Below, piece by piece: positions 20,036 to 22,430 of a DNA stretch of 64,000 bases (positions are counted from its first letter, which is position 1; each line of letters opens with the position of its first letter). Origin of the DNA: Bacteroidia bacterium (lineage in GTDB: Bacteria > Bacteroidota > Bacteroidia > Chitinophagales > Saprospiraceae). Position numbers and translations under genes: made by a program. Under the pieces are notes generated by a model that had not been told where the DNA came from, did no database searches, and saw only the letters and a program-made list of their open reading frames with translations. The stretch is taken from assembly GCA_030433135.1 (NCBI GenBank), contig JAUILF010000001.1:2891-66890 (forward strand), given 5' to 3'.

Positions 20036-20190
20036 TCTAGATTCTAGCTTTCTATTGATCACGTTTCCACAATTTCGGTTTTCAAGTTCCAGAACCATGT
20101 GCTACACGCCGTAAGTTCCGATGCCTTCTAGTGTTCGAATTTGAAGCTTTCTCTTTTCACCCGATGCTTTGTTAACTGCTCACGTCCACA
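20036..20190. repeat. Copy D (partial) of the A-D repeat family, directly 5' of the ROCO-TIR start codon
   Basis: It aligns with the right-hand half of copies A and B. For example, D gttcgaatttgaagctttctcttttcacccgatgcttt matches B gtgcgaaattagaactttctttataaacccgatgcttt. It is more diverged, and the 3' arm of the hairpin is lost. Confidence 0.55.
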
Positions 20191-20201
20191 TCTTCGGCAC
20201 A

Positions 20202-20907
20202 TTACTGGCTGAATCGCTCCACATTGGCCCCCTGAAATAAGTATTCCTTTGGTAGATAGACATCGGGTAGAATAGTCTGATTCCTTAGTCTTTCGTTGTT
20301 TTCCAAATCGCAGCCCTTCAGATCTTTCTTATACATAACTTGATGGTCTTTATCCATTGAATTTAAAAACTATAGACCTTCCAGCTTCTAACAAAGAAAC
20401 GAGATTATATGCTTCCAGAAGTTCCCTGGTCAACTTCGAGGCCAAGTTGGGATTACAGTAGAAAAAAGTTATTACAAAATGGATGTAGGTCTTGATGGTA
20501 CACAAATTACAGTGCTTCTGTTCCATCCAGTGAGTCTGAATGGGTTTTTTGGTCTCTGCCAGAATGGCACTTTCGATTTGCTTTCCCTGGCTACTGGGGT
20601 TCCCTTGAAGCTTACTTTCATCCAGTAAGGTGACCTTCCGGCAGAGATGTTTCAATTGCGGACTTACCGTCAATTCAGAAATATAAAGGTATCTCCCGGG
20701 TCTCGACCACCTTTCCATATCCAATTGTAGCAAATGATCTTTTGATCGTTGATTATAAGGAAAATCCAAGGTCAACGGACTCTGGCCTGGGTGTACAAAT
20801 CTTTCCAATGCGATGGCCGGCAACTCCATGTTGGTAGGATGTGTCAATCTAAATATAGTAAAAACGCAACAAAAACTTACATCCAGATACGCTATTATCC
20901 ATTCCAT
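20202..20907 (-). CDS. Hypothetical protein, possibly frameshifted (185-aa ORF 20350-20907 plus overlapping 52-aa ORF 20202-20357); weak LRR-like periodicity
   Basis: The 185-aa ORF ends ..FKFNG* and overlaps the ATG of a 52-aa ORF (MDKDHQVMYKKDLKGCDLENNERLRNQTILPDVYL...) in the sequence aATGGATAA. There is no clear family motif. Repeat copy B precedes it. Confidence 0.3.
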
Positions 20908-21000
20908 TTCAATTGTAAAACGTTGTCACTTTCGATCACAAGACAAGGATATCTGAACGTTTTGGATGTTGTCCCTTCCCACTCACAGTTTAGCCTGGTC

Positions 21001-21330
21001 ATACCGATTTGTCGCGGAAGTTAGGATCTTGGTGGGTCACAGGTAAGTTTACCGGAATGTGTTATGTCTTGAAAAAGGCCAATCATCCTACTGTAAGTGA
21101 GCGATTGATTCAGGAATATAGAGAGTCCTTGCTTGGGGAAGATCACTATGAGGGCTCACCAGTTCGTTCGATACTCTTGCGCAGAAAGGCCCACATTTTC
21201 CACTTTGCCTCTGGCAATTTCCCCGACCGTAGGCTATCCACCGAACATCCAGATGCCTCACTCCAGGTGCGAAATTAGAACTTTCTTTATAAACCCGATG
21301 CTTTAAAGGCATGGAATCTGAACGACCGGC
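21001..21330. repeat. Copy B of the A-D repeat family, 5' of ORF 20350-20907
   Basis: Core ctcactccaggtgcgaaa at 21257-21274. Hairpin ATGC 21298-21301 / GCAT 21309-21312 with a short loop. Confidence 0.65.
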
Positions 21331-21388
21331 TACCAACCGTACTTAGTGCATGCGGAATGTGGATAGCCACCTGTTCTTGCAGACAGAC

Positions 21389-22120
21389 TTACTTTCCTTT
21401 CCCTGATACTAGATAGTCCAGTGCTGCTTCTACTCTTTCAATATTTTTCATCAATGGAACATCTGAGTTTCGTTTTAAAGCGTTCAGTATCTTTCTTGTC
21501 CTCTCAGCATCACCGATTCGCAGTTTTTGTGAATAAACCAATTCTGCAATGGCATTTGTAACACATCCTTTTGTGAAATTACTATTTATTTCTCCGGTTG
21601 ACGATTCAATTAAGTCTAAATCGCCAAATTTGGGAATTTCCTGAATTCTCTTACTTAACCCACAAATTATCCCATCAGAGATCAAAGGTAAAAATTCTTT
21701 TAATGCATCTGGGTACTGAATAATATTTTCCGAAATGCTTTTCGCAATCTCATTTTTCATCCTCAACCTTGAGGTTGTTGCTTCAATATCGTCACACCTT
21801 GAAAATTTCTCATCAAGCTCCCTAATTTTTTCAATTAAATCAAAATTTGATTTCGCCTTGATTTTTGATTCATCTAATTGATCCAATAGCCCAATGACAC
21901 CCAGTAACCCCTCATTTATTGAATTCAACTCGCTTTTATATTCCCTATTACTTATAACACCTTTCATTTTATCTGCCTTCAAAGCATTATATCTTGAAGA
22001 AATTAGGATTATTTCCTTGCTAAAGCTCAAGAGGAATTTATTTGAAATATCTAATAATATCTTTATTGCCTCTTCTGATTTTCCTTTTAAAATTAGGACT
22101 TTTAGTACTTCCTTCTTCAT
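21389..22120 (-). CDS. Stand-alone EAD11-like (effector-associated domain) protein, 243 aa
   Basis: I place the start at ATG 22118-22120 (MKKEVLKVLILKGKSEEAIKILLDISNK...). The track ORF extends to 22360, but that extension lies inside repeat copy C. The N-terminal roughly 85 aa (LILKGKSEEAI..IILISSRYNALKADKMKGVISNREYKSELNSINEGLLGVIGLLDQL) matches the EAD11-type helical hairpin and aligns with residues 402-478 of the ROCO protein. The C-terminal roughly 150 aa are unassigned and helical. Confidence 0.75.
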   Translation of the reverse strand: MKKEVLKVLILKGKSEEAIKILLDISNKFLLSFSKEIILISSRYNALKADKMKGVISNREYKSELNSINEGLLGVIGLLDQLDESKIKAKSNFDLIEKIRELDEKFSRCDDIEATTSRLRMKNEIAKSISENIIQYPDALKEFLPLISDGIICGLSKRIQEIPKFGDLDLIESSTGEINSNFTKGCVTNAIAELVYSQKLRIGDAERTRKILNALKRNSDVPLMKNIERVEAALDYLVSGKGK

Positions 22121-22134
22121 ATGATTTTCTTGCT

Positions 22135-22430
22135 TGCCTGCAACGTGAGGCCAGTTGTCTGTGATTGATCCCCACAGTGCCGGCTCTTTTGATATGCAAA
22201 ACCTATTAGGATCGGTCAACAATTTACAAACATTCTGGGATAGATCACTACGGGACTTGGTCGCCATTCGATTCCCCTGCGCTCCAGGGCTCCGGTTTCC
22301 ACATTGCTTTTGCCAGATTCCTGGACCGTAGACAACCCGCTGCACGTTCAGATGCCTCACTCCAGCTGCGGAACCCTATCTTTAGTCTTCTTTGAGCCGA
22401 CGCTCTGAGTGCAGATGGCGTCTGAACGGT
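22135..22430. repeat. Copy C of the A-D repeat family, 5' of the EAD11-like gene
   Basis: Core ctcactccagctgcggaa at 22356-22373. Hairpin GACGC 22399-22403 / GCGTC 22418-22422. Confidence 0.7.

Follow-up and report, generated by a model that had tools for sequence, protein, structure and literature searches.

A four-copy intergenic repeat of possible mobile origin in a conflict-gene island of a Bacteroidia bacterium

Background

The intergenic repeats known as Correia elements (NEMIS/CREE) in Neisseria, and as ERIC/IRU and BIME/REP in enterobacteria, are non-coding, 100-300 nt long and partly palindromic. They lie in intergenic spacers, are co-transcribed with their neighbours, and occur as diverged and truncated copies, tens to hundreds of them over a genome. 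Correia, ERIC and REP elements act as RNA hairpins at the ends of messages, and some of them supply promoters or processing hairpins. Here we describe an intergenic element present in four diverged copies (A, B, C and D) in a stretch of 64,000 nt from a bacterium of the Saprospiraceae (class Bacteroidia; assembly GCA_030433135.1, contig JAUILF010000001.1, positions 2,891 to 66,890), the whole of which we call the window. Three of the copies surround a gene encoding an EAD11-domain protein and the ORF that follows it, in an island of conflict and defence genes.

The element resembles these families in being non-coding, in its length and partial palindromy, in its place in spacers and in its diverged and truncated copies, and it may resemble them in being co-transcribed and in supplying promoters or hairpins, a likeness which we draw from general knowledge of them and not from a sequence test. 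It differs from them in that no terminal inverted repeats and no TA-type target duplications were found, and in that only four copies are known, which are clustered and lie in one orientation. No sequence similarity is apparent, the families again being compared from general knowledge, and no RAYT-type gene lies in the window.

Two other kinds of sequence come close. Solo ends of insertion sequences (IS), of which the window holds an IS91-like example (30144-30256), are likewise short non-coding relics, about 80% identical to one another and lying beside defence genes, and they too have a common outer boundary and a variable inner truncation point. The present element differs from them in that no parent with such an end is known and in that it matches neither the IS91-like ends nor the IS1182-like fragments of the window. 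The attC sites of integrons (for example the VCR of Vibrio superintegrons) are direct, imperfectly palindromic repeats which follow single-gene units in one orientation; the likeness extends to a cargo of defence genes and to a tyrosine recombinase, here a fragment, divergent at the end of the array. Unlike attC, the element is 2-5 times longer, and continues for about 200 nt past its hairpin, where a putative promoter is included.

Four diverged copies of a non-coding element

A sequence-only reading of the window had claimed four copies of the element, each directly 5' of a different minus-strand conflict gene. We built a profile from all four copies and ran it on the window with nhmmer (E ≤ 10). 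It gave exactly four matches, all on the minus strand (22439-22121 for C, 7180-6862 for A, 21344-20992 for B and 20201-20024 for D), and no further copy at this threshold. In leave-one-out profiles, where each copy in turn is omitted and then searched for, copy A was recovered with E = 1e-45 (7157-6878), copy C with E = 1e-37 (22429-22165), copy B with E = 4e-30 over 21331-21134 only, and copy D with E = 3e-08 over 20171-20063 only. The claim of four copies is borne out by these two kinds of profile: the element is a real repeat of this island, in four diverged copies. Besides, a degenerate 32-mer taken from the core fits all four of them, with 0.00 chance matches expected.

The sequences quoted in that reading proved exact, namely the 18-mers at 7092-7109, 22356-22373 and 21257-21274, the hairpin arms at 7136-7140/7153-7157, 22399-22403/22418-22422 and 21298-21301/21309-21312, the string TAnnTTTTGCAT in A (6930-6941) and in C (22194-22205), and the ATG codons at 6855, 20021, 20907 and 22120. 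Two of the extents have to be corrected. Copy B is real but not 330 nt long, as its homologous part comes to about 200 nt and the remainder, which runs to about 20992, has no relation to A and C; copy D, real as well, measures about 110-150 nt.

Copies A and C are 80% identical over 256 aligned nt (span 7155-6895; 77% over 266 nt by BLAST), A and B 78% over 110 nt, and B and C 76.5% over 132 nt. Copy D is about 77% identical to the others over 61-64 nt. Copies B and D are most alike in their 5' parts, with 86% identity over 49 nt. All four have the orientation of the genes, each lying 5' of a minus-strand open reading frame (ORF) in the gene sense. B, C and D are found inside 2.4 kb, and no copy is found in the other 48 kb.

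The four copies have in common a core of about 110 nt. A and C share about 260-290 nt (the long form), B has about 200 nt of this and D about 110 nt, so that the 5' boundary is roughly equal in all copies and the 3' extent differs. The core is more conserved than its flanks, and its G+C content is 49-55% in A, B and C and 41% in the A-rich copy D, the surrounding region having about 40%. Its most conserved part is the 27-mer GGCATCTGAACGTGCAGCGGGTTGTCT (Table 1), of which no extra copy exists in the window at up to 8 mismatches on both strands. The copies begin 14 nt (A), about 21-45 nt (B) and about 150 nt (D) after the stop of the upstream ORF, and an IS fragment separates C from the stop of the caspase-TIR gene. 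At the other side, the in-model ends of the copies lie 0-85 nt ahead of the next ORF start, while the distance from core to start codon is about 40 nt in D, 117 nt in C, 146 nt in A and 230-260 nt in B. Copy A is held between a 132-aa ORF, whose stop it follows, and a 70-aa ORF that starts 6 nt further on (ATG 6855).

The element is non-coding, as the sequence-only reading had thought probable. Every frame is interrupted by stops in at least some copies. In each of the six frames non-synonymous codon changes outnumber synonymous ones (synonymous to non-synonymous about 1:3 to 1:5), and no frame has a synonymous excess. None of the nine longest open frames in A, B and C had a Pfam match, and profile searches with one minus-strand and one plus-strand frame gave nothing credible. 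A protein-coding remnant on either strand was rejected on the absence of synonymous excess and of Pfam matches. The source annotation nevertheless makes the EAD11 protein 318 aa long, which carries it 75 codons into copy C (22121-22345). Its homologues (P0002, P0004 and P0005) are 241-252 aa long and align only from the equivalent of ATG 22120, past the element, which indicates that ATG 22120 is the true start of this gene.

We searched for copies outside the window with a 22-mer and with the degenerate 32-mer fitting all four copies. Two exact-pattern scans each of the GTDB species genomes (about 185,000) and of the JGI metagenomes, and one such scan of IMG/VR, gave 0 matches; these scans require exact matches and could miss members of the family whose divergence equals that between B and C. 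BLASTN found no match of C among plasmids and none of A among phages. A concatenated six-frame query returned nothing, but it also missed a protein of the window itself (P0001) and is an unreliable negative. A profile of the minus-frame peptides gave 6 candidates sharing words with it, none of which scored, and a plus-frame profile run against 1.84 billion representatives gave one match (E = 8.5e-4), itself a translated tandem repeat, which we judged to be chance. The loci of the three EAD11 homologues, taken with their flanks (L001-L005), have no such element. Nothing alike having turned up in the libraries and collections searched, the sequence family appears to be new. Its kind, a short, partly palindromic intergenic repeat which possibly bears a promoter, is already well known.

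One of the homologue loci (L002, that of P0004, whose product is 56% identical to the EAD11 protein) has a palindromic repeat of its own, 106 nt long and unrelated to ours, in two copies (9426-9531 and 9788-9893) with 89% identity. Both lie in the 725-nt gap upstream of the P0004 gene, where they flank a small ORF.

Several known identities were tried and rejected. Known RNAs (tRNA, tmRNA or another Rfam family) gave no match at gathering thresholds. The copies are not the repeat pair of a diversity-generating retroelement, as their mismatches are, in every ordered pair, spread over all four bases instead of being specific to adenine. No reverse-transcriptase domain was found among 38 ORFs compared with Pfam and NCBIfam, a scan which leaves aside the 2443-aa and 1351-aa ORFs of the extracellular contractile injection system (eCIS) region and the smaller ORFs. 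The ends of the IS91-like element (left about 25708, right 27673-27786) had no nhmmer match to it at E ≤ 10 save two noise matches at E > 6. Paralogy among the downstream genes, or pseudogene remnants of window genes left in the spacers, were rejected too.

A decaying mobile repeat as the favoured reading

The reading which we favour, tentatively and at somewhat less than an even chance, is that of an intergenic repeat restricted to its lineage and descended from mobile or recombining DNA. It would be comparable to a miniature inverted-repeat transposable element (MITE), to ERIC or Correia elements, or to the solo end of a larger element; it would now be decaying, and its long form would supply a promoter. 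Element DNA would have been copied by transposition or recombination into the spacers of co-directional genes of the island, and would then have decayed. The ancestral unit would have been about 300 nt long, as in A and C, with an imperfect hairpin of about 100 nt at its 5' end, a G+C-richer core, and a 3' part holding a promoter and a small palindrome; B would have kept the hairpin and the core, D only the core. In C this 3' part would give the EAD11 gene its promoter and its 5' leader. B and D, inside the unit running from the EAD11 gene to the ROCO gene, would act, if they act, as RNA hairpins at the ends of the upstream messages, with a role in processing, stability or insulation.

Several observations point to such an origin. 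The copies have a common 5' boundary and a variable 3' truncation. Their 5' part is palindromic in B and C (z = -2.9 and -2.3), which is typical of such repeats, and D is degenerate. The island contains other relics of repeats, among them a 675-bp partial copy of the left IS91 end beside copy C, a solo IS91 end at a similar identity (83%), a duplicated promoter-bearing 75-mer and the IS1182-like fragments. Finally, the element is absent from the loci of the EAD11 homologues, one of which has an unrelated palindromic repeat upstream of the gene.

Other observations weigh against this reading. No terminal inverted repeats spanning the element, no target-site duplications and no full-length parent have been identified; at the boundaries of A, B and C, which are fuzzy, inspection by eye gave no clean terminal inverted repeat or target-site duplication of the kind expected from a MITE. 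The constant orientation of the four copies with the genes, three of them within 2.4 kb, fits a local or functional origin better than random insertion of a MITE. The better conservation of the core may be a mark of selection. The divergence of the copies is too great for a recent burst and, as no other copy was found in the species genomes, the JGI metagenomes and IMG/VR, the family consists of four copies so far.

The promoter-like site and common regulation

For a Bacteroidota sigma-A promoter we looked for a -33 TTTG and a -7 TAnnTTTG about 19-21 nt apart. The site in C (Table 1) has 7 of the 8 positions of the -7 box, the G coming one base late after one extra T; this T apart, it reads as a good predicted Bacteroidota promoter. 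Copy A has the -7-like box, but GCTA stands where the -33 TTTG is expected. TAnnTTTTGCAT occurs only in A and C, and a reading of B and D found neither a -33 nor a -7 box in them. Among possible roles the sequence-only reading had named a shared promoter or 5' leader which co-regulates parts of one system; with the promoter-like box confined to A and C, and the distance from core to ATG varying from about 40 to about 260 nt, the anatomy does not show a leader that would co-regulate all four genes.

These observations bear on a first rival explanation, in which the element is a shared regulatory module, that is a duplicated promoter, operator or 5' leader placing its genes under the common control of the LytTR regulator or of a factor binding the core. 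We think this unlikely, although it deserves to be taken seriously. Every copy is oriented with the genes and ends close before an ORF start, as a module of this sort would, but its core lies at very unequal distances from the ATG. A and C share a promoter-like box overlapped by the palindrome TTTTG-N5-CAAAA; both box and palindrome are missing from B and D. Conservation is higher in the core than in its flanks, yet the putative start site of A and C is downstream of the core, which leaves the core outside any leader RNA made from that promoter. C and D precede two genes predicted to cooperate through EAD11 (the concept is that of PMC7159879), while two of the four ORFs that follow a copy are either unverified or decayed. 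The LytTR regulator is encoded in the window (Table 1), and no pair of direct repeats with the usual LytTR spacing of 21 bp was seen, by eye only. Operators are normally 20-40 bp long. The 110-300 bp of common descent seen here exceed this size.

Hairpins and a possible RNA switch

A long imperfect hairpin can be drawn at the 5' end of C and another at the 5' end of B (Table 1). In C it contains the inverted repeat 22345-22356/22417-22428, complementary at 11 of 12 positions. The stretch 21225-21345 of B folds at -38.9 kcal/mol (z = -2.86), 2 of 200 shuffled sequences folding as well, and the extension of its hairpin to 21368 is based on the arms 21232-21241 and 21359-21368, complementary at all 10 positions. 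In both copies one and the same segment of the core pairs with upstream sequence which is not homologous between them. A and D fold no better than their shuffled versions (z = +1.2 and +1.4). At the other side of the element, the 3'-end arm of C can pair with the second half of the core, and so can its equivalent in A (6878-6891 with 7069-7082, 12 of 14 complementary); in B the partner of this second half lies on the 5' side instead, with 10 of 10 positions complementary. The complementarity between the arms of the element is real.

A small distal hairpin exists in A, B and C, as had been noticed in the sequence-only reading, which saw its stem as preserved by a compensatory double change. Covariation there is, but it concerns a single pair (U-A in A and B, C-G in C), and 2 of the 5 pairs are broken in one copy. 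This hairpin also competes with a longer helix which uses the same 5' arm (GTTCAGAYGCC/GGCATCTGRAC).

The complementarity suggests a second rival explanation, a cis-acting RNA switch whose core would pair alternately with the 5' arm, as a hairpin, and with the 3' arm about 22 nt before the start codon, and would so control termination, processing or translation. We hold it to be highly unlikely. The proposed helices have 80% of their cells paired and contain 4 pairs in which both partners changed; in controls with slid partners the figures are 32-40% and 0-2. The helix between the 3'-end arm and the core has 78% of its cells paired and 4 two-sided changes. With three sequences none of this covariation is significant, since values at least as high as those observed arise in 78-130 of 500 shuffles. 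RNAalifold counts 8 compensatory pairs, yet its covariation term is unfavourable (+3.1 kcal/mol) and the two strands score alike. The hairpins of B and C are more stable than expected (z from about -2.3 to -2.9) and the core is richer in G+C than its surroundings; against this, A and D show no such stability, the minimum free energy (MFE) folds differ among A, B and C, and the consensus fold of the core over the four copies is nearly nil (-7.9 kcal/mol). A structured RNA had been among the roles suggested from the sequence alone. Of this idea the complementarity stands, whereas the covariation, one pair in the distal hairpin and four in the long-range helix, does not reach significance with three sequences. 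No Rfam family matched either: the whole window gave nothing at gathering thresholds, and at E ≤ 10 the four regions gave only noise from eukaryotic miRNA, snoRNA and lncRNA families, far below threshold. At about 80% identity, the conservation of the element has the look of common descent and not that of covarying stems.

Junctions of gene cassettes

The way in which the copies bracket genes leads to a third rival explanation, according to which they are recombination sites, or handles of homology, delimiting single-gene cassettes in the manner of an integron array. This we regard as decidedly unlikely. The intervals from C to B (1099 bp) and from B to D (1134 bp) are single-gene units of the size found in integrons, but that from D to A spans 13 kb and many genes. 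The copies are direct repeats in one orientation, two of which (A and B) start 14-45 nt after the upstream stop, and they have an imperfect palindrome at their gene-distal end; about 200 nt are conserved beyond this hairpin, for which attC has no counterpart.

In C the 5' and 3' ends are each complementary to the core, and so are weakly alike in inverted order. The two arms (15 of 19 and 11 of 12) meet at CGTT, and a head-to-tail junction of the 3' end with the 5' end would give the core once more in inverted form. Such a split site would suit a cassette; B departs from the pattern. The ORF between B and D is wedged, as if inserted, between the EAD11-effector and EAD11-ROCO genes, which would otherwise be adjacent, and it is in their 5' parts that B and D are most alike. 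Further on (27673-31421), another two genes, different from each other, are each bracketed by one and the same set of two other repeats. No sign of mobility and no empty sites were obtained.

A fragment of a XerC/D/IntI-like tyrosine recombinase gene (22504-22827) lies divergently beside C, and a fuller copy, apparently disrupted at its C-terminus, is found in the IS91-like element (25746-26576). This recombinase is associated with the IS91-like element, a transposase gene being next to it, and it scores 88.7 bits against the cut-off of 265 for TIGR02249; a nearby integron integrase was rejected. So was a canonical integron attC. There we looked for an R'' box (RYYYAAC) on the 5' arm and an R' box (GTTRRRY) on the 3' arm, with AAC and GTT on the inner side, over 57-141 nt. 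On either strand the arms here are GTTCAGA...TCTGAAC, with GTT and AAC outermost and 2 mismatches per arm, in a conserved unit of 200-300 nt. Neither attI nor a Pc promoter was identified.

A bolder version of the same idea can be put forward, and we consider it a long shot. The island would contain an integron-like array of single-gene cassettes with junctions of about 300 nt, each made of a palindromic site and an outward promoter, whose split arms would rebuild the inverted core on circularisation; a tyrosine or HUH recombinase such as that of the IS91-like element would shuffle genes of the TIR, EAD and ROCO types.

Neighbouring genes and mobile-DNA relics

That the surroundings form a conflict or defence island, as was read from the sequence, is confirmed by domain annotation with Pfam and PADLOC (Table 1). 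The statement that each copy lies 5' of a different conflict gene is verified for C and D, which precede the EAD11 gene and the LRR-EAD11-ROC-COR-TIR gene; B and A precede ORFs without any domain match. The supposed trypsin-like remnant after A matched neither Pfam (even at E ≤ 1) nor NCBIfam. The ORF after B does have the ATG at 20907 from which it had been read as 185 aa, although the source annotation starts at M27 and makes it 159 aa. No domain was found in it with Pfam, NCBIfam or PADLOC, and it is a singleton cluster (at least 90% identity) among 15 billion proteins, no homology search having been made; scoring of its codon usage gave no discrimination.

EAD domains have been proposed to couple effectors to core NTPases through homotypic contacts (PMC7159879), which makes it plausible that the EAD11 gene and the ROCO-EAD11-TIR gene form one system. 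The window looks like Bacteroidota DNA, with canonical TAnnTTTG boxes upstream of several genes besides those discussed and no Shine-Dalgarno sequence, by eye, in the start regions read. The IS-linked recombinase and one TIR protein have their nearest relatives in Bacteroidota; for the recombinase, the closest matches among plasmids are records from Bacteroidota, and several of these have 2-3 matching places. The clusters of the window proteins tested are singletons save that of the ThsB-like TIR protein and two 2-member clusters (STAND and AAA ATPase) whose representatives are short and apparently unrelated. The ThsB-like TIR protein is the sole one tested with genuine outside relatives at 90% identity or above, including Ulvibacterium sp. 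WP_422080267.1 and several metagenome contigs. This suggests a recent horizontal transfer of its gene, which lies between the two IS91-like copies.

The second of these IS91-like copies is a partial duplicate of the left end of the first: 675 bp (22480-23149 against 25708-26382), 93% identical, covering the start of the recombinase gene. The two bracket the caspase-TIR and ThsB-TIR genes, and the partial duplicate ends exactly at the caspase-TIR stop codon and adjoins copy C. In the fuller copy both IS genes have a C-terminally disrupted look. Between C and the left-end fragment lies a perfect 8-bp G+C-rich stem-loop, TGGCGGGC-TTCT-GCCCGCCA (22441-22484), and a different G+C-rich palindrome occupies the corresponding position ahead of the full copy (about 25672-25700); the stem-loop may be a subterminal structure of the IS91-like element.

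Two further repeats bracket different genes between 27673 and 31421. The first is 115 nt long and 83% identical in its two copies (27673-27786 and 30144-30256); one directly follows the stop of the IS91 transposase gene, the other is a solo right end, and they closely follow the stop codons of the TIR gene (27794-29041) and of a pentapeptide gene (30268-31248) respectively. The second, 75 nt long and 81% identical (29569-29642 and 31348-31421), contains a TAnnTTTG box and lies upstream of the same two genes. A Logan contig of 1307 nt from the run SRR24442553 (L006) is 100% identical to 30216-31522 of the window, which shows that the source organism was present in that run. It is the only public contig found to overlap the window and stops short of the elements; it breaks off at one end within the solo IS91-end repeat, which would be expected if this repeat is multi-copy in the sample.

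Table 1. Coordinates in the window of the element, its parts and the neighbouring genes
Feature	Coordinates	Strand	Remarks
Copy C, long form	22121-22439	-	Directly upstream of EAD11 gene (ATG 22120); nhmmer
Copy B, homologous part of about 200 nt	21134-21331	-	Between EAD11 gene stop (21389) and 159/185-aa ORF; nhmmer
Copy D, degenerate, A-rich, core only	20063-20171	-	About 40 nt before ROCO-TIR ATG (20021); nhmmer
Copy A, long form	6862-7180	-	80% identical to C over 7155-6895; nhmmer
Most conserved core 27-mer, GGCATCTGAACGTGCAGCGGGTTGTCT	22330-22356	-	Equivalents 7066-7092, 21231-21257, 20099-20125
3'-end arm of C	22142-22160	-	Complementary to second core half 22330-22348, 15/19
Palindrome TTTTG-N5-CAAAA	22187-22201		Overlaps -7-like box in C; A equivalent 6923-6937; only in A and C
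Long imperfect hairpin, 5' end of C	22324-22431	-	MFE -42.8 kcal/mol, z = -2.27, 4/200 shuffles as good
Long imperfect hairpin, 5' end of B	21232-21368	-	Reaches 37 nt past homologous part
Bacteroidota-type promoter-like site in C	22197-22230	-	TTTG, 21 nt, TAGGTTTT(G); 77-85 nt before ATG 22120
EAD11-domain gene	21389-22120	-	243 aa from ATG; between C and B; Pfam EAD11 2.5e-14
LRR-EAD11-ROC-COR-TIR gene	15993-20021	-	Downstream of D; Pfam; PADLOC ThsB-like TIR
ORF between B and D	20350-20907	-	185 aa from ATG 20907; annotated 159 aa, ATG 20829 (M27)
DUF4062 protein	4862-5962
IS1182-like transposase fragments	8191-10015
DUF4062-STAND NTPase	10720-13851
LytTR response regulator	14595-15344
Caspase-TIR	23149-24393
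ThsB-like TIR	25049-25636
IS91-like element	25746-26576; 26699-27679		Tyrosine recombinase gene; Y2 transposase gene
TIR protein	27794-29041
eCIS locus	About 38.8 kb onwards

Meaning of the element

Should the copies be only decaying repeats, their value is mainly one of annotation, the ORF of the EAD11 gene being overextended by 75 codons. Alongside the IS91-type relics, they mark the assembly of the island from small modules. Should they be regulatory or recombination modules, they would show either how the multi-gene 'apoptosis-like' conflict systems of Bacteroidota are wired or how the genes of such systems are exchanged one at a time.

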